Position numbers and translations under genes: made by a program. Positions 8,385 through 35,923 of a stretch of 51,146 bases of DNA are shown here, one piece after another. The stretch lies in NCBI GenBank assembly GCA_030613375.1, contig JAUWMC010000002.1, positions 1 through 51,146 of the forward strand. Direction: 5' to 3'. Source of the DNA: Candidatus Micrarchaeota archaeon (GTDB lineage Archaea > Micrarchaeota > Micrarchaeia > Anstonellales > Bilamarchaeaceae). Position 1 is the stretch's first letter. Each line of letters starts with the position of its first letter. Below the pieces are notes generated by a model. It worked only from the letters and a program-made list of their open reading frames with translations, was not told the origin of the DNA and ran no database searches.

Positions 8385-8729
8385 ATGATTGAATCTTATG
8401 AATTTGGAAAGATTGTGATTGGTGGGAAAGAATATACTAACGATGTAATTATAGTTAAGGGAAAAGTTTACCCAAACTGGTTTAGGGCGGAGGGGCATTT
8501 TTTATCTAAAGAGGATTTAGGGCCGATTTTGGAAGGGGGAATACATACTTTGCTTATTGGAACAGGATATAACTGTGTTATGCGTGTGGGAGAGGATGTG
8601 CGGAAGTATTGCAGGGAAAAGAAAATTGAATTAATTGAGCTTGGAAGTAGGGAGATTGTGGATAAGTATAATGAGTTTGAGCATAAAGACCTGAGCGGGG
8701 TTGCTTTGGGAATACATTTGACCTGTTAG
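8385..8729 (+). CDS. Mth938-like (DUF498) domain protein
   Basis: 114 aa. The pattern F-G-x-I-x-I-x-G..Y..DVII....V..W......H.L...DL..IL......LLIGTG resembles the MTH938 family. The ATG follows directly after the TGA stop of the UbiD-like gene (cTGAATG). Confidence 0.65.
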   Translation: MIESYEFGKIVIGGKEYTNDVIIVKGKVYPNWFRAEGHFLSKEDLGPILEGGIHTLLIGTGYNCVMRVGEDVRKYCREKKIELIELGSREIVDKYNEFEHKDLSGVALGIHLTC

Positions 8730-11704
8730 TTCATTATTGATTCGAGCATTGGTTCTCCACTGGAGAAGGTTTTTTCAGTTGTTGCTTTTTCTCTTAGGGA
8801 CTGGATGATTCTTCCTTTTAGATACTCTACGTGCTCAGGAAAGAGGTTCATTTTCTCAGCAATTTCCTGAGTGGAGTATTCCGTCCCATTTAATCCAATC
8901 CAGAATTCTGCAATTTTGCGCATCCTGTGTGGAAAAGATTTAATCTGTTGCTTATGCTGGATGGCAAGCATTTTCCCGTCAGTTTCCAGGTCAAATTTTA
9001 AGGTGGGTGCTGCCTTGAGGAACTGGAATGCATCTTCAATAAGGTGTTTCGTAGCAGTAATGCTTTCTATTTCCAGAATTTCCCGTACTTCAGAAAGAGT
9101 GTGGGGCCTCCAATTAGCCATGCCGAGCTTAGCCCTAACTATCAATTCTGCCCTTGGCTCTACGCCTGAAAAGATTCCTGGGGCATCTCCAACAACAAGC
9201 CATTGCCCTGAGCCCAGCCTTGAGTCTCTTCTGGTTTTTTCCGCAATTAATTTAATAATCGCATTTTGCTTTCTCTGGAAAATTGCAGTTTTACATATAT
9301 GGATTCCCTGCTCTGAAAGCGGCCCTATCATTTCACTGCGGGTGTGCATTTTTTTTCCTGCCAATCCGAAAGCCATAGAAACAATTTCCCATTCTGCCTT
9401 GTTTAGTGCATCCATTAACTGAGGGTTTCCTTCAACCATCGCCCCAATTGGGTCTGGAAACCTTTTTTTAGTTTCATTTTCAATAACGGCAGCAACTACT
9501 TTCCACATCGCTTGATCCAAAATCTGCCTTGTTCTGGAAAAGCTTGATATGCCCATAGTGCACTGTAGTTTAGTAAGAGAATGTTTGGTGTTTCCACCCA
9601 AACCAAAATATAATTCAAGTGCACGCCTTTTTTCTGATGGGAGTGTCCTGAGTTCCTCGGAATGCTGAAGCAGGTATCCTGGAGCCCCCAACCTGCTTTT
9701 TTTAATGAGTTGAGAAACTGATTCCATCTCAAGTAAGTGGAGCCTGGCTCGTTTGAGTTTCATCAGTTTTGCTGTAGTGCGTTGGCCATGTGCATTCTCT
9801 CCATCCAGCCCAAAGCGCAGAACCAATACTCTTTGTTGCAATGGAGTTAGAGATGCAAAACTATCTTCATTCTCCGCTACAAACTCAGAAAAATAAGAGA
9901 AATTGCCAGATTGCACATTATTTCCGCTATGAACTTTTGTAAAGAGAGAAATTATTCCTCTTTGCACTAACTGTTTTGCAGTAAAGTTTCCACTCAAACC
10001 CATTTCTTCTGAAACATCGTCATATGAATGTACTCTGGTTCCAATTCCAAACCTGAGCTCCAATGCCTCTTTTTCAATAGGTTTCAATTCAGGCAGAAGG
10101 TGGAAGTTATCATAAACGAACTTCATTAAGGCAGGATCCATCTTAATCCAATTGCCAATGAGAGGAAAGTAATGTGTGTCCATAATCTTTTCCAGAGACT
10201 TGCCAACTTTGACTTTAGCTGATGAATCCAATTTTGGGCATCCTTTGCCTGCCTGTTCAAAATGAAATGTTTTCTCAAGAAATGCTGCATCCAGATATTT
10301 TAAACGGTGCGGAAAATGTGCTCTGTGTTTCTTAAAAAAATCCCGGAGCGTACCATTATTTCCACCCGTGAAAACTTTATTTGCCAACTCAAATAGTGCG
10401 GTGCCTTCCAACTGCCGAATCCTCTCTACGCTCACTGGTGTTTTGCCTCTGTTGATAGCTTGCGCGATTTCTCCCAGGGTATGCATTCTTCCATCTAAAA
10501 ACCCAAAACGCAGTTGCAAAACATTTCTGTGTGTCTCTTTAAGAGAAAGAAGCTTAGGATAATGTGCTATTAGGAAATTCCTCACGCCTCGGTTTAGAAA
10601 CACCCGAACTCCTTTTCCCAGTTGAGTATCCGAAGCAGCATCAAAAGCTTTTTTGAAAACACTTTCAAGCAGGTACTCATGCATCCCAGTAATAGTTGCA
10701 ATCTCATCCATACGATGTGGCCTACTGATTCCCACTCCAAAATGGAGTCTAAGGGCAAGTTCCTTATCCCAATCCATTAAATGGAAGAAACGTTCATTTT
10801 CCTCAACAAACAATCTGTTTTTCCGATCTAATTTATGTGTTTCTCCCAGGTTTTTATCTTCTCTGTTAAGGAGCAGGGAAAGACTGGCAATTGCAGCCTG
10901 ATAATGCACCCTCATTTTGGAGGAGTCCATTCCATTAATCCTTTTTCTTGCACCTGAAACATCATCTCCAACTCCAAAACTGACTGCAATGGCATCCCTT
11001 TCTCTACCAGGCAAAAGAGAAATCGCCTCTGCAAGTTTTTTCTTCATATCCCCAGCTAAGGCCTGTTCTTCTGGAAGCGGAGATACAGAGCACCACTCAG
11101 CAATAAAATCAAGTTCGGTGGTGCCTGTGCGCTTTTCTACGGGCTCATTTGGTTTTGTTGAGTAAATAAGTTCCTGCCTTTCTGCACCTCGCACTGAACT
11201 AGTCCAGAGTAACATGGCATCCTGGACAGATTTGGCCTTTTCAATGGATATCTCTTTGGTTCTTGCAAACGTTTCCAGAGTCATTTCTGGATTTTTCTGC
11301 ATTTCTGCACGATATGCCGAAATATCAGATACACTTGCCAGTGAAAATGATACGCTCCTGAGTGTGCGCTCCATCTCAGGTTTCCATCTTCTAAGGTTCA
11401 ACATTGCATATGCTTCAAAAACAGGGTTTGTTTTGGGTTTCCAGGTGTGTGCAGCAGAAAGAAGCAGTAAAAATCCTGCATTGGCAAAATCAGGGGCAAT
11501 TACATAATTTCTGCTAAGAACTCTCCATTTTGGAGGCGTCTCAGAAAGAGAATTCATATGAACAATAGACCCTGGAACTCTTCCAAGCTTGTTTGCCCGA
11601 AATGCCCTGTGCAGGAGATAGGTATATTTCTCTGCAATTTTAGCGGGGTCTGCCTTGAGGGGTTTGCATAAGATGCGTGCCTGCTTTGAAGCTGCTTCAG
11701 CCAT
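8726..11704 (-). CDS. sigma-70-like protein with divergent region 2, a region 3-like HTH and nine tandem region 4-like HTH units
   Basis: 992-aa ORF with GGAGG 8 nt upstream of the ATG. DFANAGFLLLLSAAHTWKPKTNPVFEAYAMLNLRR aligns without gaps to the sigma region 2.1-2.3 core. LLPGRERDAIAVSFGVG and VLQLRFGFLDGRMHTLGEIAQAI..VSVERIRQLEGTAL are r4-type units. Confidence 0.8.
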   Translation of the reverse strand: MAEAASKQARILCKPLKADPAKIAEKYTYLLHRAFRANKLGRVPGSIVHMNSLSETPPKWRVLSRNYVIAPDFANAGFLLLLSAAHTWKPKTNPVFEAYAMLNLRRWKPEMERTLRSVSFSLASVSDISAYRAEMQKNPEMTLETFARTKEISIEKAKSVQDAMLLWTSSVRGAERQELIYSTKPNEPVEKRTGTTELDFIAEWCSVSPLPEEQALAGDMKKKLAEAISLLPGRERDAIAVSFGVGDDVSGARKRINGMDSSKMRVHYQAAIASLSLLLNREDKNLGETHKLDRKNRLFVEENERFFHLMDWDKELALRLHFGVGISRPHRMDEIATITGMHEYLLESVFKKAFDAASDTQLGKGVRVFLNRGVRNFLIAHYPKLLSLKETHRNVLQLRFGFLDGRMHTLGEIAQAINRGKTPVSVERIRQLEGTALFELANKVFTGGNNGTLRDFFKKHRAHFPHRLKYLDAAFLEKTFHFEQAGKGCPKLDSSAKVKVGKSLEKIMDTHYFPLIGNWIKMDPALMKFVYDNFHLLPELKPIEKEALELRFGIGTRVHSYDDVSEEMGLSGNFTAKQLVQRGIISLFTKVHSGNNVQSGNFSYFSEFVAENEDSFASLTPLQQRVLVLRFGLDGENAHGQRTTAKLMKLKRARLHLLEMESVSQLIKKSRLGAPGYLLQHSEELRTLPSEKRRALELYFGLGGNTKHSLTKLQCTMGISSFSRTRQILDQAMWKVVAAVIENETKKRFPDPIGAMVEGNPQLMDALNKAEWEIVSMAFGLAGKKMHTRSEMIGPLSEQGIHICKTAIFQRKQNAIIKLIAEKTRRDSRLGSGQWLVVGDAPGIFSGVEPRAELIVRAKLGMANWRPHTLSEVREILEIESITATKHLIEDAFQFLKAAPTLKFDLETDGKMLAIQHKQQIKSFPHRMRKIAEFWIGLNGTEYSTQEIAEKMNLFPEHVEYLKGRIIQSLREKATTEKTFSSGEPMLESIMN
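8786..11020 (-). repeat. protein-level tandem array of nine sigma region-4-like units (aa 229-973 of the 992-aa ORF)
   Basis: Unit cores are AIAVSFGVG, LALRLHFGVG, VLQLRFGFLDG, ALELRFGIG, VLVLRFGLDG, ALELYFGLGG, IVSMAFGLAG, LIVRAKLGMA and IAEFWIGLNG. Each is followed by a helix-turn-helix-like stretch. The period is about 75-150 aa. Confidence 0.7.
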
Positions 11705-19555: not shown

Positions 19556-19619
19556 AAAGAGGATTTAGCTATAAATTAATTAAAAGGGGAAGGGGGGTAG
19601 GTTTCCAGTGAAAAAAATG

Positions 19620-19692
19620 TGGGACCGCCGAGATTCGAACTCAGATAACAAGTCCCCGAAACTTGCAGCTTACCAGGTTGGCTCACGGTCCC
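19620..19692 (-). tRNA. tRNA-Pro (anticodon CGG)
   Basis: A 73-nt cloverleaf was folded by hand: acceptor GGGACCG/CGGTCCC, anticodon stem CAAGT/ACTTG, loop TTCGGGG, T-arm CTGAG-TTCGAAT-CTCGG, discriminator A. No CCA is encoded. A T7 run follows immediately. Confidence 0.9.
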
Positions 19693-19839
19693 AGACAGTT
19701 TGAAGTGAAGGCGATGAAGGCGGCCCTTCTGAGCTTCGAACTGGCTAAATGGGTTAAGTTCTCTTTTTTGGGAATACCTGCTTAAAAATGCTACTGCAAG
19801 CCGAATGAATTTATATTATTTCCCTTCGCAAGTAAATAT

Positions 19840-20814
19840 ATGCAGAGTAAAGCCGGCACAACCGCTTTAGGAAACCCAAAAAGGATTGGGGGAAACAAAA
19901 AGCCTCATGCTGTCCATGACCAGATTCTTTTTTCAAGGGGAGGTGTTTCCTCGGAAAGACTTACCAAAAAGGATCTTATGGTGGGAAGGAAGCTGCTCTC
20001 GGAATTATCTGAAATGAAATACCCTATGAGGGATCGGGCCAGGGTTGTATATCTCAATGGTGGGGAGGCAGGCCAGAAAACAGAGCTTAAAAAAATAGCT
20101 TATGGGCTTGCAGTGCTTGACTTTGTAAAGGCAGTCAACAAGCGTGCAGAAAAATCCTCCACTACAACTTCAGGGGATTACCAGGTATTCTGCAGTTCGA
20201 TATCTGTATTCGCCAGTTTCTTTAAGGGAGAATATTTTTCCGAAGCACTAGAAAAAAATGCGCTTCCGCTTTACATGATGGAATCTGCCCTTGAAGCATG
20301 CTCAGAAATTTATGGAATGGGCACACTTCTTTTTGAAGAAACTTCTACGAGGTACATAGGAAAAGCAAGTGAATTTGTTGAAAATACAAAAAAAGAGGAT
20401 GCTGCACTCCAGAACTATGTTGCCCTGAGAATAAATACGCTGAATGAAAGGCTGGAAAATCAACAGGATAAACTACGCAAAGAGTTTACCAACAAAGTGC
20501 TGAAAGTATTGAAACGTCCTGGCACAAGGGGAGTAAAATACCAAATGCTTACCCGGAATTATGATGGCGCTTCGGTGAATGAGCCCACTGAAGAATTTGT
20601 GCTCTTTGGAAAGCATGACACAAAAAAGGCCCTTTCGCAAAAGCTTGAGAGTGCAGGGAAGCATCACATATTGGTATTAGAATATGAGCTGGAACTGCTT
20701 GAGGAGATACAGGACAAATTCAAGAAAGGACTTCCAATCAATGCAGAAGAAAGGGAAGCGGTCGCAAGACTGAAGGCAGGGGAACACGATAAAAGAATCA
20801 AAGCCATACGGTAG
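19840..20814 (+). CDS. hypothetical protein
   Basis: 324-aa ORF. A TATA-like ATTTATATTA (19809-19818) lies about 30 nt upstream of the ATG. Confidence 0.6.
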   Translation: MQSKAGTTALGNPKRIGGNKKPHAVHDQILFSRGGVSSERLTKKDLMVGRKLLSELSEMKYPMRDRARVVYLNGGEAGQKTELKKIAYGLAVLDFVKAVNKRAEKSSTTTSGDYQVFCSSISVFASFFKGEYFSEALEKNALPLYMMESALEACSEIYGMGTLLFEETSTRYIGKASEFVENTKKEDAALQNYVALRINTLNERLENQQDKLRKEFTNKVLKVLKRPGTRGVKYQMLTRNYDGASVNEPTEEFVLFGKHDTKKALSQKLESAGKHHILVLEYELELLEEIQDKFKKGLPINAEEREAVARLKAGEHDKRIKAIR

Positions 20815-20866
20815 GATTACTTTGGACCGAAGTAAAGCTTAAATATCTGCTCTTCGTGAAAATTAT

Positions 20867-21127
20867 ATGGCCCTAGACGATAAGATTGCAACCCTGGACA
20901 AGAAAACCAAAAAACAGGTAAAGAAAACTCTCAAATCAATCAATATTGCACTAAAACTGAATTCTGTAAAACTCAAACAAAAGAAAATTCCCAAGAAGTT
21001 GGAGCATCTTGTGCAATGGAAGGGTGCCCTGGAACAATGGCAGACAAATTACGGAAAAAGCACAGAGATCATGGATATGGCTGAAGGTTTAGGGGCATAT
21101 CACGAAATTTGCGTATCTCTTGGATAG
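20867..21127 (+). CDS. small Lys-rich hypothetical protein
   Basis: 86-aa ORF with a TATA-like GCTTAAATAT about 30 nt upstream. It ends 9 nt before the giant ORF start. Confidence 0.45.
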   Translation: MALDDKIATLDKKTKKQVKKTLKSINIALKLNSVKLKQKKIPKKLEHLVQWKGALEQWQTNYGKSTEIMDMAEGLGAYHEICVSLG

Positions 21128-21136
21128 GTGGGATGA

Positions 21137-24100
21137 TTGGATTCTCAGTTTAAAGGAAAAGGGAAACCCGTGCTTAATGTCAGGTCACATGAAGAATTAG
21201 GGATAACTGCAATTGCAGCGGTGCCTATACCGACACCAGTGGAAACAGGAAATTTGGCTGAAATTGCAGGAAAGGAAGCAGAAAGAGAAGTAAATAAGTT
21301 AACAAATCTGGGTGGACAAACTGAAGAAATTGCGGAAGCTGCTTTGAATATTGCATCACAAAACACTGAAAATGCGGTTGCGCTGGATTCCCGGGCAATG
21401 GCTGAACTTACTAAAGAAAGCTTAACCGACAAGGTTAACTCTCTGGAAGTGGCTCTTGAAAAAATGAAATCAGGGGAGAAGTATTCTAAGCTTCCCCAGG
21501 AAATAAAAGAAAGAGTTGAGAATGTTGCATGGCTTGCCTCGCAGGCAGGAAACAGGCTGGATTCAATGGAAGGTCCGGGGCAGGAAAATGTGCTCCGAAA
21601 AGCAAGCGAAGATGTTTCCTTTGCAACTTTTGCAATGAGCACAGTGCCTCTTGAAAAACAGGACCCTGCATCTGGAATGGCAAAATTCCACAAAAAGCTA
21701 AAGGAACTGCGGGAAATGGGGATTGAAGAGAGGGTGGGGAGGGAAAGGGAGGGATATATAGAACTGAGGGCTGCTGCAATTGTGGCATCCCTAGAGATAA
21801 GGGTTCGCTCCAATGCTAGGGGCATTGCACTTGCAAAAGAATACCGGAAACAAAACAAAAAATCATATTCAAAGGAGGAAAATAAAAAAATTAGGGGATA
21901 TCTTGCGCTTGCAGCGCAGCTTAATGGGAAAGCGCAGAAAAGCTTGCAGGGAGGGAAGCTTCTTGAGGCAGATGCACTTATTTCCAAATCCAATGCCCTA
22001 TCATCTGCAACCATGATGTACCTGGGCGCAGTGGGGTCAAGAAACTCCATGCGGCCGCCCATTAGGAGAAAAAATGAATATGAAAGGCTCAGAACAGCGG
22101 CAGCCTCCGAAATAAGCAAGATTGAGGGTGCGATGAATGCGATTGCTGCACTTGACACATCAATGGATGTAAAGGAACTCTCTGCAAAAACACTGGAGAA
22201 GTTTGGAGAAGTGCAGGAAGCGTGCGGTGCGGTGCAGAAAAAGGCTGCGGAAGCTGAACTGCTGCGGTTTGATGCATCACGTGAAGGGTATGTGGACAAG
22301 AGGCTGGAAAGAGTAGGTAAACGCACGCGTGGGCTGATAGATGCAGGGCAATACGAGGATGCTACTGAGCTGCTTGGGGTTGCTTTCCTTTACAAGGGAA
22401 CATATGAGAAGAGCTCATACAAGGGAATTGTGGGGGAGGATGAGAAGAAGAAAACACTTGGCCAAAAGCAAAAAGAGCTTGCAAAAAAGTTTGGATATTC
22501 TCCAAAAAGAGATAATTTGAGGCAGGCACGAAGGAAACTGGGGAGGGCTCTTGATGCGCTCTGTCCCCCTGAGAAAGAAGTTAAAGGAAAGCGGATGGGC
22601 GAAGCTTACTACGAGCGGGAGCTTGCAGCTGCAAAAGGCCTTATCAAAAGCGTGAAGAAAGGGCTGACGCATGCGCAGGATGCAAGGCAGGACCAGAAGG
22701 ACCAGCTTCTTGTGCTTGGAAAAGGGCAAAAAAAGAAGCCCGGCTCAGTTGCAACCAACACTGATATCGACCTTATGGCTGCTTACGGGCTTATGGGAAG
22801 GGCAAATGATGCAGAGCAGGTGCTCGACACAACTTTCCAGGATCACCTTGATGCAGAAAGGGAACTTTACATTGCTTCCCTAAACGTTGGGGAAACGATG
22901 GGGCTTCTAGCCACGCAGGACAAGCTGGTAACCCAAAAACAGAAGGAACTTGCAGCTGCTGGAAAAGACCTTGCAAAGCAGTCTGCAGGGATACTTGGGA
23001 ATGTTGCCCTCAAAGAATCGTTCGAAGAAATAGAGGAGCGGGAAAAGGAGGAAGGAATAATTATAACGCCTCATGGGGAAACAGGAGCAGACCGTACCGC
23101 ACTTGCAGTAAACGGAAGGCTTACGGGCACGCTTGATAATGTAATGAAGCAGGAAGCCAGGATGTCCGGCCTGCATGATGCAACCGTAAAAATATTGGGA
23201 GGAAAAACGGAGGAAACTGGGGTAGTTGGGTATAACGTTGCAGAAATAGTTGATTTGCAAAAAGAAGAGCTGAAGCGCTCTGATGAGGTCCTGAAGGAAG
23301 CAGGAGGGATGCAGGCGATAGGGAGAAGTGCATCCACTTACCTCATGGCCTACCGTGCAGGGGAAAGCAGGTTCTGGGGGAACACAAGAACAGTTCAGAT
23401 GCGGGACTATATCCCACGTGCAATGGATAAACTTTATGATGCTGCGAAGCATGTTGGGGATGGAAAATGGAAGGATGCTTCTAAGAGATATGGGGAAGCC
23501 CAGGGCCAGTTTATGGAAGGGTTTGCAACTGCAAGCGAGCGCAAATACAATGACCCCCTAATAGTGGAATACAAGGAAAAAACTCAGAATGCATTTGATG
23601 TGCTTATTGGGGTGAACGAGGGTGAAGCAAAAGACCTGAAAGCAGCAATACTTGCACTCAATGCAACTAACCTTACTGTGCAAACCCAATACAGAGGAAG
23701 CCAGGTGTTTGAAGGAGGGCTTGAAAATATTTTTGTTTCGTTTGAAGATGGAGGCTGGCTAACTCTTCTTGGGCCTGCGGGAATGGTTGCAGCTCAAGTT
23801 TACAGGGCATCTTCAAAGAGGAAGGAAGTGGTGCCCAAAACAAGGGAAGAAAAGCTGGAGCGCATTGGGTATGTTCCTTATGAAAAGAGAGTTGCAAGGA
23901 TGGAGGCTAAAACTGAGGAAGTGCTCAGCGGAAAAACCTCATTGTTTGAAAAAAGAGGGGCATTAAACAGCATAAGAAATGATGCGGATGACTCCCTTGA
24001 AACCTACCAAATTGCGCAGAGCGCGGAGGATGGACTGTTTACTGCCGCTTCGCTTGCTCTCCAGCCGATTTTCATTACTGAAATGACCCGTGATACGGTG

Positions 24101-27100
24101 AGGCATGGCGCGGATGTGAATACTGCAATACTGGCTGCTGCACTTGCCACAGGGAAAATCGGGCAGTTCAGGAAAGCGGCTTCAGAGTTTGCAGAAGTTG
24201 TAGGGAAGGGTGCAGAGCAGCTTGAAAAGCTTAGCAAGCTGCAGAAAGTAGCACAGCACCTGAAAGACCCTGTGGAGCTTGTGCATTTTGCGGCTACAGG
24301 GTACCTTGTGGTGCATGGAACTGCAGGAGCAGTAACAGAATTTGAGTATTTTGCTGCGACAGGGGACACGCGGCACCTTACTGCAGGAGTGCAGTCCATT
24401 GCATTCCAGATTCCTATTCTTACAGGGTTTACTGCACCCATGCTGAGGGGAGGGAAAACTGCTCCCCGTGCAAGGGAAAAATCCCTCCTTGGAAGGGTGC
24501 GCGATCAGCGCTTGGCAGAGCAAAAATTCAGGGAAAGGCTTGAAAAATCCAGGACACCTGAGCAAAGGGAACTGGAACAAAAACTAAAGGAAAGGCCGGA
24601 AGCACCCACTGGGGAAAAAGTAAAGGAAACGATTGCGGAGAGAAAGAGGCTCATAAAAGCAGAAGAAAAGGAATGGGAGGAGCTTAAAACTGAAAGGAAA
24701 GGGGTTACCCCAAAAGAAATTGCCGAGCAATTCAGAAAGATTGAATCCAGTGCAAAAGAAATTGCTGGTAATCGCGAACTTACTGCTGAAGACCAAACTC
24801 ATTTTGCAGAAGGGAGGAAAGCTGAAGCCGCAGAATTGCGGGAGCGCGCAGAAACCCTTAAGCTGGAAGCTGTACGGATAAAATCAGAGCTTGGGGAGAA
24901 AGCAACAATTGATATAATGAAGAGAGTAGACAGGCTGAACAAAACTGCAGGAGCGCTTGAAAAAAGCGCTAAGATAATTGATGCCCAATCCCGGAAAAAG
25001 GTTGCTGTGAAAGTTAAAGGCGTTGTGCCCAAGATTATTGTAACGGAAACTGTTTCGGCAAAGCTGCGCCAGAATCTTGAAATACTTGAGGTAAAAAAAG
25101 AAGTGCGAGCTGCAGCTGAAAAGAAAATCGGCGCATCTGCCCTGGAAGAACGCACAAATGCAATTATGCGCACCTTCAAGGGAATGGAAGAAGTCGGGCG
25201 CGAAGTAGTTGAAAAGAACCCTGAGCTCTTTACGCAGCCCCAGGCTAAATTTGAGGCAAATGTGAAAAGGCTCAGGCAGACAAGAAAAGATGTACAGAAG
25301 ATTAAATTGGTGATGGAAGAGCGTGGCCTTAAGGTCCCTGAAGGAATTGAACGCGATGCAAGGCCTTACCTTGACGTGAATTTCAGGGAAAACGTCCACC
25401 TTGAAGTCTGGCGCATGGAGGCGGAAAAGCTTGGTGTAACTGTTGGGCCTAAAGCCCAGCCTGCTGCAGAAAAGGCGGCTCCGGCTGAAGCCCGGGAAGT
25501 AGAATATTCAACACGCAGGGAAAGGCAGGATGCAAGCTTCATGAAAAAGTATGGTGTTGAATGGGCAGAAAAAACAATTGCTGAAAACCGCCCTGAGGCG
25601 AATGAAACTGTTGAGAACCAACGGCTGAGATACCTTGCGTTTAACCGGATTGCGAGAGAACCTGCAAAAGTAAGGATGGTGCTGAAAGAAAGAACAATTG
25701 AAAACACCCCGAAAGAACTACGGGGCATCGTTGAGATCGAATGGAAAATTTATGTGGAGGGAATGATTCCTGGTCTTAATGAATATAGCCCTGTACGAGA
25801 GATGTCAAGGTTCAAGGCAATCCAATCTGAAAAACTGGCCCCTAAAATAAAAAGTGATGTTGATGGATTCGTGCGCAATGCAGAAGGTGCAAATGCCCAT
25901 GGGGTGGCCCATGATAAGGGAGGGCATGAACGATTCACAAATGTTGTTCTAAAGGGGGAAATCCCTCAGACTGCATGGGTCGGTCCGATGAAAAAGGGCC
26001 CCGGTGTGGACCGCTCTACCTCCTCTGCATTCCACGGCCCATTCTGGGTTGTGCTTGAAGGGAAAGCAGGGGCAAAGAAAGGCCCCATAAGTGCAAAGGA
26101 ACACGTTGCGTACGTGTGCCCATCTGAGAAATACATGGTGGAAACATCCAGGGCAATAAAAGATGCATATTCACAGGGACTAATGACCCGTACGGAGGCA
26201 GTAAAAGCAATTTCAAAGCTCATGACTGCTGCAGAAGCAAAAGAAGCTCCTGCAACCGCCTTCCGCTCTCGGGCAGGCAGGAAGGCAGGGGCAAGGGAAT
26301 TCTGGGCTGAAAGAAGTGCTTTGGCTGAAGGGGAAATTGTTTCGTTTGAACGATTCTCAAGAATGGAAGTAAAGGAAGTGGCTGCGAAGCCGAAGAAGAA
26401 TATCGTTGAGAAGATTAAGGAACTACGTGCGGAGGAAAAACGAACCGGAAGACCCAGCCTAGATCGGGCAATGCTGGAAAGGCAGATTGAGCAAAACCCG
26501 CACCTAAAGAAAGCAGTTGAAGAATATAGACGCATGGTGAGGCTCTCGGTTCGTGCAGAGAAAGGCACGCAATTTGGAATGGTTGGGGATGTAGAAGGGT
26601 TCAAAGCAGAGAATGTAAGGGAAGCTGGGGCGGCAAAGGCAAAAGCAGGAGAGAACCTTGTGGATGCGGAAGCAACTGCAAAACCTGCAGAACCATCTGT
26701 AGGGATGACACGGGCAAGAAAGGCCCTGAAGGCCATGAAAGGAGCAAGGCAGAGGGCAAAAGAGAGGATACTTGCCCTTGCGCGGTTGCCTGCAAAAATA
26801 AAACGGCTCAGAAAACAGCGCAGGAAGGAAAAGCGTGCACAGGTGCTTACACCTAAAGGAGAGAGGGTTAAGGTTCCACAAGAGCAGGCTGAGAATGCAA
26901 GTAAAAGAATGCAGGACACAATATTCAAATCCGCCATTACTGATACAGGAATGAGAAATGCGATTGGGCTCGAACGAGGAAGATCCCTTGCGAAAAATGC
27001 ATGGGCTGAAGTATACAGGGGAGAAGCTAAGCCCACGTTCAAAACCACATTAGAAAAAGATACATACGTGGCAATGAAAAAACAGGTGCAGGCAAGATTC

Positions 27101-29308
27101 GAGCAGGTTGTGGATTACGCGTGGAAGGACACAATACGGGAAAAAACGCACCTGAGAAAGCGCACCAAGAAACCCGCCAGAGTGGCTGATGCTGAGATAG
27201 TTGTTTACCTCCGCATGAAAAAAGTGTTCGGCACCATCTGGGAAGCAAACGTGAAGCGCAAGGGAATGAACCGGAAGGCAGTAAAGGGGATGGTACGTCC
27301 CCAGGAACTTGCTGCTGAATACATGGGATACCTGCAGAGGGGCGCAGGAATGCCAAAGGAGATGCTTGCAAAAGTAAAAGAGATGGGAATTGAAACAACT
27401 TTTCCGCACGATGGAAAATTCGTTACCACCGTAAAAAACCCTTCTGGAAAAACGGTCTTTGGAGACCTGCATGGAGACCACACCTGTCCAGTAACTACAC
27501 TAAAAGAGGTGGGATTCGTTATAGATGCCCGCCCGGACCTGGCTGTGGGAGATACCAGCATCTCCCCGAAGGACAGGTACATCCTGAATAAAGAAATTGC
27601 CCAGGGAACGCAATTCATATTTTTGGGGGATTATATAGATAGGGGACCGCACAGTCTGTATGCGGTTGATTTTGTACAATGGCTGAAAGCAGAAGTTAAA
27701 ACACTTGAAAACGGCTCCCGCGTACACACGCTCAAAGGAAACCATGAAGCCATTTTCACCAGGATTTTCAATATATATAGAAACAAGTCCACTGCAGAGG
27801 TTAAAGGGCTGATACATGAAATTGATGCCCTGCACACTGCAGAAAAAGATGGAAATCTCATTAAAAAACATGCGCTGCGTGAAAATGGACAGATAGGAGA
27901 ACTCAGAAAAGAAGGGATTTTAATAGAACGTGTAGGTACAGAAAAATTACTTGGGGAAATCCTGGATAGATATGGAACATGGGAAAAGGCAGTTGTAGAA
28001 ATGAAAAAGGAAGGGGGGCTGATGCATTTCATTGAAAATACTACTGGCGCAGTGATACTGGAAAATGAGAATGGAAATAGCCTTTATACTCACGGGGGAA
28101 TAGTGGCCAAAACTGCTGCAAGGGAGACGGACGGGACCATAATCAGGAAAACTGATGGAGAAATATTGTATGATGAGATTAGAAGTGCAGAGGACTTTGA
28201 AAAACACTTCAAATATTTCTTTAAGAATGACCTTAACTGGGTCCAGAACGGGGTTCCCACTGAATCTAAAGCAGAGAAGGAGTTCTTACGAAATATGAGG
28301 GAAAGAGGTTATTCAGGAGACTATTCAATAAGATATGCGGGTGTTCCCGAGACTGATGGAGGGGGGTTGCCCAGATCTGCAACATCCAAAGCTGGCAAGA
28401 ACCTCACCCTCTTTGCCGACAACCTAGGTCTCATGGAAATAGGTGTTGGGCATCACCCATCTGGACAAATAAGGCAGATATACTCCCAGGAAATTGGGAA
28501 TGGGAAGAATGTTGTAATGGTAGGCTACGATGCCGCACTTAGCAGCGCATACGGACCTGGATTCAGCAACTGGCAGGGCGGCCAGGCAGGACATAGCACA
28601 GCGTGGGGCTTACCGGGTGAAAGAAACAAAATCGTAACTGCAGGGAGGGAAAATGTGCCCGGGGTTAGAACACACTCAACAATTACCTCCCCCAAATTTA
28701 CAATCCCAGATATGAAAAATCCATACACTAAAGCATGGGAGCAGACTGAAGGGAAGAAAAATGCCGCTGTGCCACCTCTCCCCACAGCAGGAGTTGTCCC
28801 TGCTGCCCCAAAGCGTGCACCAGCACCAAAGAAAACTAAAGGACCAAAGATTATGCCAAAACGCCCAAATCAACCAGTAAACAAATCCCAGTCCGGGCAG
28901 AATGCTCCAATTAATCTTGTAAAAAAGGCGCACCCAAAAATGCCTGAGAATATTGAAAAGTGGGTGGACCCGGAAACAGGGCTGCCATGGAGCAAACTAA
29001 AGGAACACATGAATAATGAAAATTACTCTAAAAAATTCACACTCCCTGTTGAAATTAATGGAAAAGAAACTGAATGGACCATAAAGATTGAAGGCACCAC
29101 ACAGATTATAGGAGAAGAAATGTACTGGTACACCATTTCATCCTGGCCTGCAAATATAAACTACCCTCCCGGCCAGAATACTGGAGCAGTTATAATGCAA
29201 AAAGGAGCAAGCCTGAAGAACCTGATAATCAAAAATATCAAGAGAGACCTCACTCAAACTGGTTCTGGCAAAAAAAGCGGAGCAAAACCCCCCGGTCCAC
29301 GCAAGTGA
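21137..29308 (+). CDS. giant protein (2723 aa): long charged helical regions, a central hydrophobic segment cluster, and a C-terminal PPP-family Ser/Thr-type metallophosphatase domain
   Basis: Uninterrupted 8.17-kb ORF. The earliest possible start is TTG 21137, because an in-frame TGA sits at 21134-21136. AGGTGG lies 5 nt upstream. Confidence 0.85.
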   Translation: MDSQFKGKGKPVLNVRSHEELGITAIAAVPIPTPVETGNLAEIAGKEAEREVNKLTNLGGQTEEIAEAALNIASQNTENAVALDSRAMAELTKESLTDKVNSLEVALEKMKSGEKYSKLPQEIKERVENVAWLASQAGNRLDSMEGPGQENVLRKASEDVSFATFAMSTVPLEKQDPASGMAKFHKKLKELREMGIEERVGREREGYIELRAAAIVASLEIRVRSNARGIALAKEYRKQNKKSYSKEENKKIRGYLALAAQLNGKAQKSLQGGKLLEADALISKSNALSSATMMYLGAVGSRNSMRPPIRRKNEYERLRTAAASEISKIEGAMNAIAALDTSMDVKELSAKTLEKFGEVQEACGAVQKKAAEAELLRFDASREGYVDKRLERVGKRTRGLIDAGQYEDATELLGVAFLYKGTYEKSSYKGIVGEDEKKKTLGQKQKELAKKFGYSPKRDNLRQARRKLGRALDALCPPEKEVKGKRMGEAYYERELAAAKGLIKSVKKGLTHAQDARQDQKDQLLVLGKGQKKKPGSVATNTDIDLMAAYGLMGRANDAEQVLDTTFQDHLDAERELYIASLNVGETMGLLATQDKLVTQKQKELAAAGKDLAKQSAGILGNVALKESFEEIEEREKEEGIIITPHGETGADRTALAVNGRLTGTLDNVMKQEARMSGLHDATVKILGGKTEETGVVGYNVAEIVDLQKEELKRSDEVLKEAGGMQAIGRSASTYLMAYRAGESRFWGNTRTVQMRDYIPRAMDKLYDAAKHVGDGKWKDASKRYGEAQGQFMEGFATASERKYNDPLIVEYKEKTQNAFDVLIGVNEGEAKDLKAAILALNATNLTVQTQYRGSQVFEGGLENIFVSFEDGGWLTLLGPAGMVAAQVYRASSKRKEVVPKTREEKLERIGYVPYEKRVARMEAKTEEVLSGKTSLFEKRGALNSIRNDADDSLETYQIAQSAEDGLFTAASLALQPIFITEMTRDTVRHGADVNTAILAAALATGKIGQFRKAASEFAEVVGKGAEQLEKLSKLQKVAQHLKDPVELVHFAATGYLVVHGTAGAVTEFEYFAATGDTRHLTAGVQSIAFQIPILTGFTAPMLRGGKTAPRAREKSLLGRVRDQRLAEQKFRERLEKSRTPEQRELEQKLKERPEAPTGEKVKETIAERKRLIKAEEKEWEELKTERKGVTPKEIAEQFRKIESSAKEIAGNRELTAEDQTHFAEGRKAEAAELRERAETLKLEAVRIKSELGEKATIDIMKRVDRLNKTAGALEKSAKIIDAQSRKKVAVKVKGVVPKIIVTETVSAKLRQNLEILEVKKEVRAAAEKKIGASALEERTNAIMRTFKGMEEVGREVVEKNPELFTQPQAKFEANVKRLRQTRKDVQKIKLVMEERGLKVPEGIERDARPYLDVNFRENVHLEVWRMEAEKLGVTVGPKAQPAAEKAAPAEAREVEYSTRRERQDASFMKKYGVEWAEKTIAENRPEANETVENQRLRYLAFNRIAREPAKVRMVLKERTIENTPKELRGIVEIEWKIYVEGMIPGLNEYSPVREMSRFKAIQSEKLAPKIKSDVDGFVRNAEGANAHGVAHDKGGHERFTNVVLKGEIPQTAWVGPMKKGPGVDRSTSSAFHGPFWVVLEGKAGAKKGPISAKEHVAYVCPSEKYMVETSRAIKDAYSQGLMTRTEAVKAISKLMTAAEAKEAPATAFRSRAGRKAGAREFWAERSALAEGEIVSFERFSRMEVKEVAAKPKKNIVEKIKELRAEEKRTGRPSLDRAMLERQIEQNPHLKKAVEEYRRMVRLSVRAEKGTQFGMVGDVEGFKAENVREAGAAKAKAGENLVDAEATAKPAEPSVGMTRARKALKAMKGARQRAKERILALARLPAKIKRLRKQRRKEKRAQVLTPKGERVKVPQEQAENASKRMQDTIFKSAITDTGMRNAIGLERGRSLAKNAWAEVYRGEAKPTFKTTLEKDTYVAMKKQVQARFEQVVDYAWKDTIREKTHLRKRTKKPARVADAEIVVYLRMKKVFGTIWEANVKRKGMNRKAVKGMVRPQELAAEYMGYLQRGAGMPKEMLAKVKEMGIETTFPHDGKFVTTVKNPSGKTVFGDLHGDHTCPVTTLKEVGFVIDARPDLAVGDTSISPKDRYILNKEIAQGTQFIFLGDYIDRGPHSLYAVDFVQWLKAEVKTLENGSRVHTLKGNHEAIFTRIFNIYRNKSTAEVKGLIHEIDALHTAEKDGNLIKKHALRENGQIGELRKEGILIERVGTEKLLGEILDRYGTWEKAVVEMKKEGGLMHFIENTTGAVILENENGNSLYTHGGIVAKTAARETDGTIIRKTDGEILYDEIRSAEDFEKHFKYFFKNDLNWVQNGVPTESKAEKEFLRNMRERGYSGDYSIRYAGVPETDGGGLPRSATSKAGKNLTLFADNLGLMEIGVGHHPSGQIRQIYSQEIGNGKNVVMVGYDAALSSAYGPGFSNWQGGQAGHSTAWGLPGERNKIVTAGRENVPGVRTHSTITSPKFTIPDMKNPYTKAWEQTEGKKNAAVPPLPTAGVVPAAPKRAPAPKKTKGPKIMPKRPNQPVNKSQSGQNAPINLVKKAHPKMPENIEKWVDPETGLPWSKLKEHMNNENYSKKFTLPVEINGKETEWTIKIEGTTQIIGEEMYWYTISSWPANINYPPGQNTGAVIMQKGASLKNLIIKNIKRDLTQTGSGKKSGAKPPGPRK
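27440..28470 (+). other. PPP-family (calcineurin-like) metallophosphatase domain inside the giant ORF
   Basis: The ordered motifs GDLHGDH, GDYIDRGP, GNHEA, THGG and GVGHHP match GDxHG / GDxxDRG / GNHE / HGG / GH of PPP and ApaH-like phosphatases. Confidence 0.8.
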
Positions 29309-29553: not shown

Positions 29554-30081
29554 CTATTCCCTTATAATATGGAAATAACGGGAGTAATTTTGATTCTGCT
29601 CCATTTCTTTTAACTGTGTTACTTCATTTTCAGATACTGGAAGATTCTGGAAAAACTTCAGTTTCATCTCATCCAGAAAGCTGTGGTCCCCATCCGCACC
29701 GGACATACAATAAGTAGCAATTGCACCAATTTTCCCTTCCCTCGTTTCAGGGCGATCATTTGCTGACACCAGTGCATAACGGGGAGTAGTGAGAAACTCC
29801 AGGTCTTCCTTGTTTCCATATTCAACTGCAGTTGCTTTCCCACCATCAAAAAGTGCGTTTATGAAACTAATCATTTCTTTCCTGAAAAGCTTTCCGCGAT
29901 TCTCGAGCCTTTTGTCCAAAAATGCCCTCCTTGAAAGAATAAATGATGCCATTCTCTCTGTGAGGTATGTTTTTCCATCTTTATTACGAAAATTCCTAAT
30001 TCCTGCAAATGCTTTTGGGAGACCTGGAAGGATTCTTGCCCTGGGGTTTTTGGGTCCGTTTTGAAGTTCTGTTCCTGCCAT
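29554..30081 (-). CDS. hypothetical protein (175 aa)
   Basis: The start is trimmed to ATG 30081 (MAGTELQNG...). The 410-aa track ORF extends antisense through the divergent promoter and the neighbouring gene. Confidence 0.55.
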   Translation of the reverse strand: MAGTELQNGPKNPRARILPGLPKAFAGIRNFRNKDGKTYLTERMASFILSRRAFLDKRLENRGKLFRKEMISFINALFDGGKATAVEYGNKEDLEFLTTPRYALVSANDRPETREGKIGAIATYCMSGADGDHSFLDEMKLKFFQNLPVSENEVTQLKEMEQNQNYSRYFHIIRE

Positions 30082-30229
30082 GTAGGTAATTAGGGTTAAG
30101 GAAATATATAAAGGTTCTGAATAACGGAGCGAAAGGCATTTAAAGAACACTTTTATAAACATTTTGCAACAGTATATATAGTGCTCCGAGGTGCAATATT
30201 TGGGCGAAACGAGGAAGAGCACACGGAAA

Positions 30230-31441
30230 ATGTCCCGGCCGATTATGGTTGCGCCAGAGAAAAGAGGGGTTAATTGTGCGTTCAAAAAAGTATGCTGCAG
30301 GAAGTGCATGATTCCCCAGCGGCCCATAATTGCCAAAAAAACGAAAAAACTTGTTAAAAAGAAGATTACGAAACTCCTGAAAAAGGTCAACCGGATTAAC
30401 AGACTTCCGTTCTGGCCTGAAAAAAGAGATGCGAAGCTTAATGCAATAAAAGAGCTCCTTTTCCTGCTTGAGGGTGTGGCGATGCCAAGGAGGGATGGAA
30501 GTGTGGAATATGCATTGTGTGGAGAATCAGGTAAAAACGGAACGCAGGTGATGAGGCTGTTGAGCTCGGAGGAACTGGGAAAGATCCTGAAGAAAATTTC
30601 TCTGGAAATTAATCCAGTGGGGGGGTTCATGAGCATTTCAGAATCTGCACCCCCTTCGGGAATGAGGCTCGCTCTTGCACGGCTTCTTGGACAGATAAGT
30701 GCAGTGGAGCTCCCGAAAAAAAGGGGCGCGCTGGATATGCTTATTATGGATGGGGGGATGGAGGGGATAACAGCTATTTCAATCATGGTAGGGGAACCAA
30801 CATTGAAGAATGAAACAAGGTGGGAATACCTCAGGGCGCTTAAATGGATTGTTTCCTGTGCAGAATTTTATGCAGATGGAAATGTGGAGATATCTAATGA
30901 AGATTATGAGCTTGCTGCTGCACTTTCCAGATTTTTCCCGGTTGAGGTCATGGGTGGCCAGGATGAATCAGGCACTACACATTTTTTTGCGCTGGACAGA
31001 CTTCCCCTCCCCTCCAACGTATCTGAATCCAGGCTAAAACAGATGATTACTTTTACAATGTCAGAATTCTTTATGGCGCTTGTGGACATGTCCGCAAGGA
31101 TAGATGCAATATTTTCATCCTCACCTGAGCAAATTGAATATTATTCTGTGCTGGGAAAAGAGTATTACACATCCCTGGAGCTGGGCGTGAAACTGCTTGC
31201 GGGCAACGGAATGAGCAACAGGCACATTTTTGAAATGATTTGCGGCAGGATGGAAAAAACGTTTGGGCCGCATGATGAACTTGACCAAAAAGAGCTTGCA
31301 ATGCTAAAACATGTGGTGAGGAAGCTTGATAGAAATGGGGAAGTTGATTCTGCTGCTGCAGAAACATTCATCTCGGTTCTGGGGGAAGAAGAAATTGACC
31401 TGAGGGAACATCTGGAAAAGATCCGTTTTCATCCTGTCTAG
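30230..31441 (+). CDS. hypothetical protein with a basic N-terminus
   Basis: About 403 aa counted from ATG 30230; GTG 30191 is also possible. The stop overlaps the stop of the convergent UbiA gene in the palindrome CTAG. Confidence 0.6.
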   Translation: MSRPIMVAPEKRGVNCAFKKVCCRKCMIPQRPIIAKKTKKLVKKKITKLLKKVNRINRLPFWPEKRDAKLNAIKELLFLLEGVAMPRRDGSVEYALCGESGKNGTQVMRLLSSEELGKILKKISLEINPVGGFMSISESAPPSGMRLALARLLGQISAVELPKKRGALDMLIMDGGMEGITAISIMVGEPTLKNETRWEYLRALKWIVSCAEFYADGNVEISNEDYELAAALSRFFPVEVMGGQDESGTTHFFALDRLPLPSNVSESRLKQMITFTMSEFFMALVDMSARIDAIFSSSPEQIEYYSVLGKEYYTSLELGVKLLAGNGMSNRHIFEMICGRMEKTFGPHDELDQKELAMLKHVVRKLDRNGEVDSAAAETFISVLGEEEIDLREHLEKIRFHPV

Positions 31442-34689: not shown

Positions 34690-34900
34690 TGTGGCTACTC
34701 CCCGCCCTAAAGGACGGGGCTTCTCCTTCACAAATAGATCTTCCTGATTCATAGAGATACTTGCCCATTATACTTTATAATGGTAGAGGCATCTTCTCAG
34801 CAGGCTTTACTTCCCCGCGCCCACGGGTAGCTTGTTTAGAGCCTGAATGTCTATCACCTAGAGATAGGCCCAGAGCTCGTTTGAGTATATTTTTAGCTGC
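34690..34900 (-). ncRNA. candidate omega-RNA (reRNA) region covering the tnpB 3' end and right end
   Basis: The call is positional, by analogy with characterised TnpB systems. The 8-bp hairpin at 34700-34719 contains one pair that is G-U only in the tnpB sense and a C-A mismatch on the other strand. Confidence 0.3.
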
Positions 34901-35923
34901 ATTGAGGTCCCTATGCATAATTGCTCCACAAGAACAATTATGCCACCTCTCCGCAAGCGTTTTCTTTCGTATTAAACCACAACTGCTGCACTCCTGAGAA
35001 GTGTGGGCAGGATTCACAAGAACAACTTCAGAACCAGCTTCCTCCGCTTTGTAGTGAAGCATTTCCCTAAACTCTGCCCAGCTGCAGTCCAATATGTGTT
35101 TTGCAAGGAAACCTTTGCTCAATCCGTTTACATTTAGGTCTTCCATTGCAAGTAAAGAATATGAATTAACCAGCTTCCTGCTGGTTTTGTGAAGAAAATC
35201 CCTTCTGTTGTTGGTAACTTTTTCATATGCTCTGGCTACCCTTAGTTTTGCCTTTCTCCTGTTTTTGCTTCCTTTCTTTTTTCCTGAGAATGATTTTTGA
35301 GCTTGTTTTAGCTTATTTTCTGCTTTCCTCAGGTGTCTTGGATTTATGATTACAGAATCATTGCTTAAATATCCAAAATTCTGTATTCCCAGATCAATTC
35401 CCACTTTTGCACCTTTGTTGCATCTCGGAGTTATTTCAACTTCTGAAGTAAACACTGCACACCATTTTCCAGATGGCACTCGTTTTATTGTGAGGGTCTT
35501 GATTTTTCCTTTTAGTTCCCTGTGTTTTTTGATTTGTATTTCTCCCAATTTTGAGAGTAAAAGTTGTTTGTTTAACTTGAATCCAAACTGGGGATAAGTA
35601 AATGATTTCATTCGTTCTGTTGGCTTGAACCTAGGAAAACCTACTTTTCCGCCTTTTTTCTTTGTTGCAAACATTCCTTTTAGGGCCTTAACAAGCTTAT
35701 CTGCCACGTTTTGAGATACCTGGGAAAATAGTTTGGTTTTCTTTTTTGTTAGGGTATAAAGTTGTTTTCTTGTTGGGAATCTCTTGGTTTTTTCATAATG
35801 TTCTTTTGTATATTCCAGAAGAAAATTCCATAGGTTTTTGCATTCGTATAGGTAAAACTGAAACTCTTTTTCTTGTTCTTTTGTTGGGTAGATTCTGTAC
35901 TTCCAGCTACGTATTACTATCAT
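34775..35923 (-). CDS. tnpB: TnpB (IS200/IS605-family OrfB) RNA-guided nuclease
   Basis: 382 aa. The RuvC triad is present in VGIDLGI, LAMEDLNV and HRDLNAAKNI. A zinc finger CSSCG...CSCG is also present. Confidence 0.9.
   Translation of the reverse strand: MIVIRSWKYRIYPTKEQEKEFQFYLYECKNLWNFLLEYTKEHYEKTKRFPTRKQLYTLTKKKTKLFSQVSQNVADKLVKALKGMFATKKKGGKVGFPRFKPTERMKSFTYPQFGFKLNKQLLLSKLGEIQIKKHRELKGKIKTLTIKRVPSGKWCAVFTSEVEITPRCNKGAKVGIDLGIQNFGYLSNDSVIINPRHLRKAENKLKQAQKSFSGKKKGSKNRRKAKLRVARAYEKVTNNRRDFLHKTSRKLVNSYSLLAMEDLNVNGLSKGFLAKHILDCSWAEFREMLHYKAEEAGSEVVLVNPAHTSQECSSCGLIRKKTLAERWHNCSCGAIMHRDLNAAKNILKRALGLSLGDRHSGSKQATRGRGEVKPAEKMPLPL

Follow-up and report, generated by a model that had tools for sequence, protein, structure and literature searches.

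What a protein of 2723 amino acids (aa) may do for an archaeon with a genome of about 1 Mb is the question raised by a stretch of 51,146 nucleotides (nt) from a Candidatus Micrarchaeota archaeon (GenBank assembly GCA_030613375.1, contig JAUWMC010000002.1, positions 1 to 51,146 of the forward strand; hereafter the window). DPANN archaea have genomes of about 1 Mb; little is understood of the ways in which they control or exploit their hosts, and candidate molecules have come mainly from Nanohaloarchaeota. Analysis of the giant open reading frame (ORF) in the window showed that it belongs to a real, lineage-restricted cassette of two genes, a small ORF and the giant, which bears an intact metallophosphatase module of the PPP family and undergoes replacement of modules and of the cassette itself. 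The finding goes beyond a lone giant ORF: the giant is one member of a family of recombining cassettes in which the small partner is constant. Related loci and their proteins are designated below by L and P numbers, respectively.

An earlier note, made from the letters of this DNA alone, had described a 324-aa ORF upstream of an 86-aa ORF and of the giant, a 9-nt spacing between the latter two, and a TTG start with AGGTGG 5 nt before it, all of which are present in the sequence (Table 1). An earlier start of the giant is excluded because an in-frame TGA (21134-21136) directly precedes the TTG, and the TTG itself is supported because homologues align to the giant from residue ~10. A GGTG motif stands at the equivalent site in L001, L010, L012, L011, L005 and L004. 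The giant is a real ORF, since an open frame of 2723 codons cannot arise by chance. Its standing as one single gene agrees with L005/P0009, a separate assembly of a metagenome-assembled genome (MAG), in which the N-module, mid module, phosphatase and tail follow in the same order within one 2432-aa ORF. The coding strand of the giant is purine-rich, with a GC skew of +0.18 to +0.25 and an AT skew of +0.24 to +0.30. Long antisense ORFs of up to 393 aa also occur inside 21137-29308, for example 21145-22326 and 25966-27048 on the minus strand; they coincide with this skew and are not genes, codon composition being the best explanation for them.

The 86-aa protein is Lys-rich, basic (isoelectric point, pI, ~10) and helical, and no other element of the cassette is as well conserved. 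The small ORF lies directly upstream of the giant in all ten loci that have the giant's start on the contig, measuring 86 aa in seven of them and 107 aa in the three loci of a second clade. In five loci the 86-aa proteins share 63-78% identity, against 24-48% or no relationship for the N-modules of their giants; identity is 80% among the 107-aa proteins, and the giants behind either small ORF are 24-53% identical or unrelated. Alignment of the 107-aa with the 86-aa protein scored 8 bits (maximum 6.0 in 500 shuffles), and the former is a weak homologue of the latter. The 86-aa protein found no match in Pfam, PHROGs, PADLOC or, by profile, the Protein Data Bank (PDB). Wherever the giant has an unambiguous start, 6-21 nt separate it from the small ORF, and the GGTG motif stands at or over the small ORF's stop codon; in L011 and L016 the called ATG of the giant lies 82 nt past the small ORF, and L011 has closer alternative starts. 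The short gap, the GGTG at the stop codon, the lack of room for a promoter and the pairing in 10/10 loci strongly suggest that the 86-aa ORF and the giant are co-transcribed, as had been proposed. Separate promoters had been assigned to the 86-aa ORF and the 324-aa gene, and TATA-like boxes conserved in other loci were found before both. The AAAGCTTAAATAT-type element of the 86-aa ORF recurs at the same distance in L010, L012, L005 and L004, with a variant in L001.

An exhaustive HMMER search with an N-terminal profile was carried out against 1.84 billion representative proteins. It returned ten proteins only, most of them 2,100-3,900 aa long. Further members came from contigs: P0011, P0013, L010, which measures at least 2,897 aa and is the one locus given by a metagenome scan, and L004, truncated by the end of its contig (at least 725 aa). 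All public copies are called 'hypothetical protein', and their source MAGs are labelled Micrarchaeota or 'Candidatus ainarchaeum'. A pattern scan for the N-module over 185,579 GTDB species genomes gave no relative, being too narrow a scan that missed the GTDB genome L005; word-index homologue searches, also those made with the alignment of the full family, likewise returned P0001 and P0002 only and missed P0009, which is in the collection, so that they are not evidence of absence. The N-module had no match in IMG/VR viral contigs. The phosphatase module had no homologue among phage records beyond generic PPP motifs in two jumbo-phage contigs, plasmid records being outside that search. Full-text literature searches gave no paper on such a protein. 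P0015/L017, a 43-aa ENA 'representative' of the 90% cluster of the window giant, was rejected as independent support: its contig has no BLAST similarity to the window, and its cluster membership is a clustering oddity.

Comparison of the family members revealed a shared N-terminal part followed by changing arrays. The N-module (aa ~10-1140) occurs in most members at 24-62% identity and is missing from L010; that of the window is 62% identical to P0002, 48% to P0001 and about 24-31% to P0003, P0004, P0007, P0009 and P0010. The phosphatase is carried by five of the nine distinct large members compared, together with the pre-phosphatase region in P0009 (64% identity in that region), P0007 (35%, from window aa 1914) and P0010 of locus L012 (41% over 138 aa). 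P0003 has the phosphatase core only and does not share the pre-phosphatase region. The mid module M is 64% identical to L010 and 51% to P0009 and is absent from the other members. P0009 has the tail domain at 46% identity and P0010 at 34%, in the latter case at an internal position; the Pro-rich linker and the ~130-aa domain of the earlier description are present, and the 'terminal' position of that domain is not general. Other members carry unrelated arrays of 1,000-2,700 aa. Within the window giant the similarity partner changes across the charged linker, being P0001-like before it and P0009/L010-like after it, and the centre of this linker (aa ~1208-1305) had no tblastn match in any related locus.

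The flanking genes tell a different history. L012 is 94% identical to the window in the helicase and 91% in the glutamyl-tRNA synthetase (GluRS), whereas its small ORF is only 66%, its N-module 27% and its phosphatase 36% identical, and its giant is 1,133 aa longer. L001 is only 60-67% identical in SMC, UbiA and arginase, yet it holds the closest full-length N-module (46-58%); the two loci were compared with the window through different marker genes, and their ranking by genome distance is our reading of these. The second clade shows the same: identity falls from 86% in a neighbour gene to 80% in the small ORF and 53% over the initial ~1,400 aa of the giant, beyond which the giants are unrelated. 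A conserved ~170-aa gene, moreover, flanks the cassette on one side in some genomes and on the other side in others. These alignments mark the giants as mosaics, in which a common N-terminal module is combined with C-terminal modules that have been shuffled; the pattern conflicts with the genome tree as far as the sequences compared can tell. The GC content at third codon positions (GC3) of the giant is 43%, inside the local range of 34-44%, and its higher overall GC stems from codon positions 1 and 2. Neither a partial repeat of tRNA-Pro, a flanking direct repeat, an attachment (att)-like repeat nor an integrase was found at the window locus, and an integrated mobile element was rejected on these grounds and on the normal GC3. 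Exchange seems to proceed by recombination among related genomes and not through a recognisable mobile element, because GC3 is local and neither att-like repeats, an integrase nor viral or phage homologues were found.

The nature of the phosphatase module was examined by motif, profile and predicted structure. A complete PPP-type motif set had been noted near the C-terminus, and all five motifs are there: GDLHGDH (aa 2109), GDYIDRGP (aa 2164), GNHE (aa 2201), THGG (aa ~2318) and VGHHP (aa ~2437). The only Pfam match in the giant is Metallophos (aa 2107-2215, E 1.5e-6, above the gathering score); in P0003 this match covers profile positions 2-188 of 191, the last His motif included. All six metal-ligand motif positions are invariant across the five homologous modules (GD.H.D, GD...RG, GNHE, TH.G, VGH), with the late His motifs TH(G/A)G and VGH kept in 5/5. 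A profile built from the five modules matched BSU1, PP2A, PP5, calcineurin, the Shewanella cold-active phosphatase and RLPH2 in the PDB. An AlphaFold2 model from this shallow five-sequence alignment reached a predicted template modelling score (pTM) of 0.80 and a predicted local distance difference test score (pLDDT) of 73.6, superseding an unusable single-sequence AlphaFold prediction of aa 2051-2548 (pLDDT 33). When the model was compared with the PDB by Foldseek, 50/50 among the matches listed were PPP phosphatases (PP5, PP2A, calcineurin, RdgC and the Shewanella phosphatase) at probability 1.0 over 377-437 aligned columns; the template modelling scores are modest (0.30-0.51) because of two large inserts, and identity to any solved structure is 12-16%. 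The top matches in a viral structure library and PHROG 246 are Ser/Thr phosphatases too. Sequence profile and predicted fold thus agree with the motifs in identifying the module as a genuine and complete PPP-family metallophosphatase, which is probably active as an enzyme.

The module shares GDxHG(D), GDxxDRG, GNHE and two later His motifs with the PPP phosphatases PP1, PP2A, PP5 and calcineurin and with the bacterial-type relatives of these, among them the Shewanella cold-active, RLPH2 and lambda/NinI phosphatases, and its best PDB matches in sequence and structure are exclusively PPP enzymes, next to phage NinI-like PHROG matches. It differs from these ~300-aa enzymes in being embedded near the end of a 2,723-aa protein and in two family-specific inserts, one of ~25 aa conserved between motifs I and II (ID.RPDL...D.S....RY..N) and one a ~100-aa helical stretch after GNHE. 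By the N-terminal motifs, the two His motifs and the predicted fold it is a divergent member of the family. PPP-like enzymes act also on Tyr, on nucleotides such as diadenosine tetraphosphate (Ap4A) and on RNA caps. Since enzymes with the same motifs hydrolyse such other substrates, the 'Ser/Thr-type' specificity that the earlier note had assumed is not established by sequence or fold. As a separate observation, the phosphatase module of P0010/L012 (P0010 aa ~1579-1640) reads GDMHAD for GD.HGD and GDREGRG for GD..DRG, deviating at the motif I Gly and the motif II inner Asp, and its Pfam score falls under the gathering threshold; this module may be an inactive pseudo-phosphatase.

The giant is a basic protein (pI ~9.9) of ~300 kDa with four cysteines. 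Outside the phosphatase it has no match in Pfam, NCBIfam or PADLOC, which agrees with the earlier view of a charged, helical protein of no recognisable family; its helical character is a matter of composition, helix-forming residues making up 52-64% of every module except the phosphatase and the tail. Neither internal repeats nor Walker A or HExxH motifs were found, and the mid module M had no match in Pfam and none significant by profile against the PDB. The hydrophobic cluster that ends the N-terminal part is 58% identical to P0001 and is also matched in P0003, P0004, P0005 and P0008, an equivalent cluster standing at the same relative position in every family member. Its most hydrophobic segments (aa ~966-1103) are not constitutive membrane helices because their summed Hessa insertion energies are positive (dG +3 to +9 kcal/mol) and their Kyte-Doolittle values are 1.1-1.3. 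A transmembrane anchor was therefore rejected: the cluster is conserved, yet too weak to be called transmembrane, and no segment of the giant attains transmembrane-like hydrophobicity. An N-terminal signal-like hydrophobic stretch is not visible either, just as had been noted. In the paralogues, a kinase-like motif picked by eye (D.H..N ... D.E) was rejected after a three-sequence profile gave noise only; caspase-like (AAHG ... SCSTG) and GGDEF-like motifs, also picked by eye, stay unconfirmed, single-sequence PDB searches with P0003, P0008 and P0010 being empty.

Table 1. Positions of the cassette, its upstream neighbour, their putative signals and the modules of the giant in the window.
Feature	Position	Strand	Remarks
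TATA-like box TTTATATT of the 324-aa gene	19810-19817	+	conserved in other loci
324-aa ORF	19840-20814	+	ATG start
Transcription factor B recognition element (BRE)/TATA-like element AAAGCTTAAATAT of the 86-aa ORF	20834-20846	+	21-33 nt before its ATG; read from sequence
86-aa ORF	20867-21127	+	ATG start
Shine-Dalgarno-like AGGTGG	21126-21131	+	overlaps the 86-aa ORF stop codon, 5 nt before the giant's TTG; read from sequence
Giant ORF, 2723 aa, ~8.2 kb	21137-29308	+	TTG start
N-module, aa 1-950	21137-23986	+	rich in helix formers; matches no known family; common to most family members
Cluster of 3-4 weakly hydrophobic Gly/Ala/Thr-rich helices, aa 951-1140	23987-24556	+	conserved
Charged linker, aa 1141-1305	24557-25051	+	44% D/E/K/R
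Mid module M, aa 1306-1871	25052-26749	+	conserved globular core ANAHG...GGHERFT...HGPFWVVLEGKAG...AYVCPSEKY
Pre-phosphatase region, aa 1872-2084	26750-27388	+	basic, helical; ends in conserved YLQRGAGMPKEMLAKVKEMGIETT motif; travels with the phosphatase
PPP-family metallophosphatase module, aa 2085-2530	27389-28726	+	Pfam, five-module alignment, AlphaFold, Foldseek
Pro/Lys-rich linker, aa 2531-2589	28727-28903	+	P+G 25%, pI about 11.4
Tail domain, ~130 aa, aa 2590-2723 plus stop codon	28904-29308	+	no family assignment

With the cassette so defined, we considered what it may serve. The reading that we prefer, tentatively and at somewhat below an even chance, is that of a lineage-specific, recombining two-gene cassette for interaction between organisms, one of whose payloads is an active phosphatase. 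An inter-organism role is favoured because replacement of modules and cassettes of this kind is typical of proteins that face another organism, be it a host, a competitor or a virus, and a role in host interaction or conflict fits because the gene is mosaic, hypervariable and phylogenetically discordant. Since DPANN archaea live attached to hosts (PMC6642349, PMC10266531), the host would be the most plausible counterpart. One promoter before the 86-aa gene would most likely drive a bicistronic transcript whose second cistron encodes the ~300-kDa mosaic protein. The latter is built like beads on a string: the family-wide N-module ending in weakly hydrophobic helices, then charged and Pro-rich linkers joining variable modules, here an unknown 570-aa module, the basic helical region, the predicted catalytically complete PPP-type phosphatase and the small tail domain. 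Related lineages swap whole modules and the whole cassette, seemingly by recombination. Localisation, assembly or transfer might be the task of the conserved N-part together with the small partner, and the variable C-terminal enzymes could be interchangeable payloads acting on the molecules of another organism, most plausibly the attached host, in which case the phosphatase would strip phosphate from host phosphoproteins or phospho-nucleotide signals.

Several observations weigh against this preferred reading. No Sec or Tat-like signal and no transmembrane-grade segment is visible in the giant, genes for secretion, for pili or of the VirB4 type are missing from the 51-kb window, the giant shows no adhesion domains, and no immunity-like gene co-varies with its C-terminus. 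The PPP phosphatase, the sole recognisable enzyme, is equally at home in cell-autonomous signalling. The notion of an array of enzymatic payloads draws on this one confirmed enzyme, the kinase-, protease- and cyclase-like motifs of the paralogues being unsupported, and hypervariability would fit antiviral defence as well. We infer delivery to the host, and an effector role stays at that level since no export signal, delivery machinery or target was found. A more specific version, which we hold to be improbable as a whole, would make the cassette an archaeal counterpart of polymorphic effector systems, able to work without a classical secretion signal. The weakly hydrophobic helices of the ~300-kDa carrier would then be chaperoned by the small conserved protein, and the carrier might insert into or cross the symbiont-host contact (a cytoplasmic bridge) and present its swappable modules, here the PPP phosphatase, inside the host, and module recombination would track variation of the host or of its defences.

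Foremost among the other explanations is a cell-autonomous scaffold, in which a cytoplasmic, possibly membrane-peripheral giant would position the PPP phosphatase and other modules for the cell's own phosphoproteins, its division or its envelope, with the 86-aa protein as a structural or regulatory subunit. PPP phosphatases are normal signalling enzymes of archaea. The absence of an export signal and of a predicted transmembrane helix, the stable chromosomal position amid housekeeping genes, a GC3 like that of the neighbours, which gives no sign of foreign origin, and the basic nature of both proteins (pI ~10), compatible with binding of nucleic acid or acidic lipid inside the cell, all speak for it. 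However, such a scaffold should track the genome tree, yet genomes with flanks 91-94% identical carry giants of 27-36% identity that differ in length and module set. Only the five phosphatase carriers among the nine large members would have the enzyme to position, the N-module itself is replaced in L010, and the family is missing from almost all other archaea. We regard this explanation as rather unlikely; were it true, the giant would still be an unusual signalling scaffold replaced wholesale between close relatives.

Quite unlikely, in our estimate, is a fast-evolving intracellular system whose sensor and effector modules vary and whose targets are viruses or mobile elements, sited at a hot spot next to a tRNA gene and regulated by the small protein. 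Defence proteins are commonly large and devoid of export signals. Module shuffling, replacement of the cassette between close relatives, the adjoining tRNA-Pro in most loci and the varying placement relative to the conserved ~170-aa neighbour would all suit this explanation, but no PADLOC model matches any of the three proteins, NTPase or Walker A and HExxH motifs are missing, and Pfam and NCBIfam reveal no nuclease or other defence-typical domain. Moreover, no other defence genes lie nearby, and att-like repeats or an integrase, as said above, are lacking.

A classical polymorphic toxin against conspecific competitors, with the N-module for trafficking, a toxin at the C-terminus and an adjacent small gene for immunity, has very little probability. 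A conserved N-part with recombining C-terminal parts is indeed a described hallmark of such toxins (PMC3482391). Against this, the giant shows neither a recognised domain for trafficking nor a repeat stalk (RHS, filamentous haemagglutinin), known toxin domains are likewise missing, its variable part comprises 1,000-2,700 aa and several modules instead of a short tip, and the tip is not where the phosphatase sits. The one small gene that is constant lies upstream and does not vary with the C-terminus. The conserved ~170-aa neighbour was rejected as an immunity gene because of its position, which changes sides between genomes (downstream of the cassette in the window, upstream in L012 and L004), and its convergent orientation in the window. 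Such systems are also reported to be generally absent from archaea. An assembly artefact, in which the 8.2-kb ORF of this MAG contig would be a metagenome chimera or a concatenation of two strains or of several genes, joined in the charged linker with its unmatched centre between a P0001-like N-half and a P0009-like C-half, is hardly credible given the same module order in the independently assembled L005/P0009, the assembly from at least nine further samples of giants measuring 2,100-3,900 aa and accompanied by the same small ORF, relatives only about 50% identical and hence not co-assembled strains, and the uniform composition and lack of a repeat at the join.

The cassette was then set beside the systems that it recalls. 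The SPEARE and other giant proteins of Nanohaloarchaeota are very large and strain-variable, take a notable share of a ~1-Mb genome and have been proposed to act in host interaction (PMC6642349, PMC10266531). Our giant likewise is a very large, variable protein of a host-dependent DPANN archaeon, but the features of SPEARE, namely a Sec signal peptide, Ig-like and laminin-G domains, a transmembrane anchor, a VirB4/TraG-like ATPase and a neighbouring secretion ATPase gene, were not found here by Pfam, NCBIfam, hydrophobicity or Walker A search, and no sequence similarity was detected. With the bacterial polymorphic and multi-effector toxins (the logic of Rhs, CdiA, LXG and MARTX) it shares a conserved N-part and recombining C-parts (PMC3482391), L010 without the N-module being the exception. 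It differs from them in that the N-terminal 2,000 aa of any member hold no Pfam or NCBIfam domain and that no matched immunity gene exists, the sole constant small gene being upstream and 63-78% identical whatever the C-terminus. In LXG systems, small helical partner genes adjoin the toxin gene, a likeness to the window cassette. Three features of polymorphic toxins were tested, and the cassette has the recombining C-terminus and lacks the other two. The giant therefore belongs to neither group, resembling SPEARE in spirit and the toxins in their logic of a carrier plus variable payload. Giant genes of Omnitrophota and other ultra-small or predatory bacteria, as described in one preprint (10.1101/2023.11.21.568195), are rare, very long ORFs that for the most part have no known domains and are suspected of acting on other cells; the giant is similarly a rare, very long ORF, mostly without known domains, in a small or episymbiotic cell. 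Those genes belong to another domain of life, are far longer, have no detected homology to the giant and are linked by the title of that preprint to cell-wall degradation.

The locus provides a defined candidate from Micrarchaeota, in which ~0.8% of a 1-Mb genome is spent on one arms-race-like gene with a simply assayable enzyme, and the constant 86-aa partner offers a handle for pull-downs and localisation. If our preferred reading of inter-organism interaction is true, the combination of a conserved carrier with a recombining payload, a logic held to be all but missing from archaea, would have arisen there in an unrelated protein family.

The 324-aa gene upstream of the cassette has homologues in L010 (74% identity), L002 (72%, cut off at the contig end) and L005 (54%); L001, L012, L004 and the P0007 locus are without it. 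Its occurrence being limited to the window, L002, L005 and L010, it counts as an optional neighbour and not as a constant member of the cassette. The triplet of 324-aa gene, 86-aa ORF and giant that the earlier note had considered is accordingly not a fixed set, the first having its own promoter and being missing from four loci. Its protein gave no match in Pfam, NCBIfam, PHROGs, PADLOC or, by profile, the PDB. Upstream of it, ARAGORN placed a tRNA-Pro(CGG) at 19619-19692 on the minus strand, which adjoins GluRS in seven related loci and was not reported by the Rfam scan of the window at gathering threshold. The ~150-nt spacer between this tRNA and the 324-aa gene (19693-19839) is almost identical to L010 3708-3850, while the window and L010 are only 79% identical in GluRS and 74% in the 324-aa protein; the spacer may hold a conserved regulatory element or a small RNA. 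In L005 (~9400-9460), a second copy of the ~19-nt tRNA-Pro 5' end, GGTTGGCTCACGGTCCC, lies between tRNA-Pro (9683-9755, about 230 nt away) and a 337-aa gene, and may be the scar of an integration or excision.

The further neighbours in the window are ordinary chromosomal genes, comprising an archaeal-type GluRS, a DEAH/MZB helicase, tRNA-Pro, UbiA, arginase, FKBP, SMC, AcnX, UbiD, MscS and TrkH, together with one TnpB insertion. The window GluRS is 77-91% identical to those of four Candidatus Micrarchaeota/Micrarchaeia MAGs, which bears out the placement of this DNA, made from the letters alone, among small-genome archaea, here DPANN. Downstream of the cassette, the maximal ORFs 29554-30786 (minus strand) and 30191-31441 (plus strand) overlap by about 600 nt. 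Homology of the former to L003, L004, L005 and L012 is limited to its last 150-244 aa; the real gene therefore measures about 176-258 aa, and the overlap with the plus-strand ORF is probably not real. It is this conserved gene that stands upstream of the cassette in L012 and L004. A 991-aa protein encoded at 8726-11704 (minus strand) combines a Sigma-70 region 4 helix-turn-helix (E 6e-23) with a second, weaker one and nothing recognisable beyond these matches, an unusual architecture for archaea. In L015 (1-2567, plus strand), the DHH-family gene next to the giant, whose 445-aa orthologue in L011 has no intein match, carries an intein (Intein_splicing and LAGLIDADG_3). Next to the FKBP gene of the window stands a TnpB/IS605 OrfB gene (34775-35923, minus strand) with OrfB_IS605 and Cas12f1-like TNB domains, which is probably a recent insertion because the syntenic L001 is without a TnpB gene at the corresponding site.

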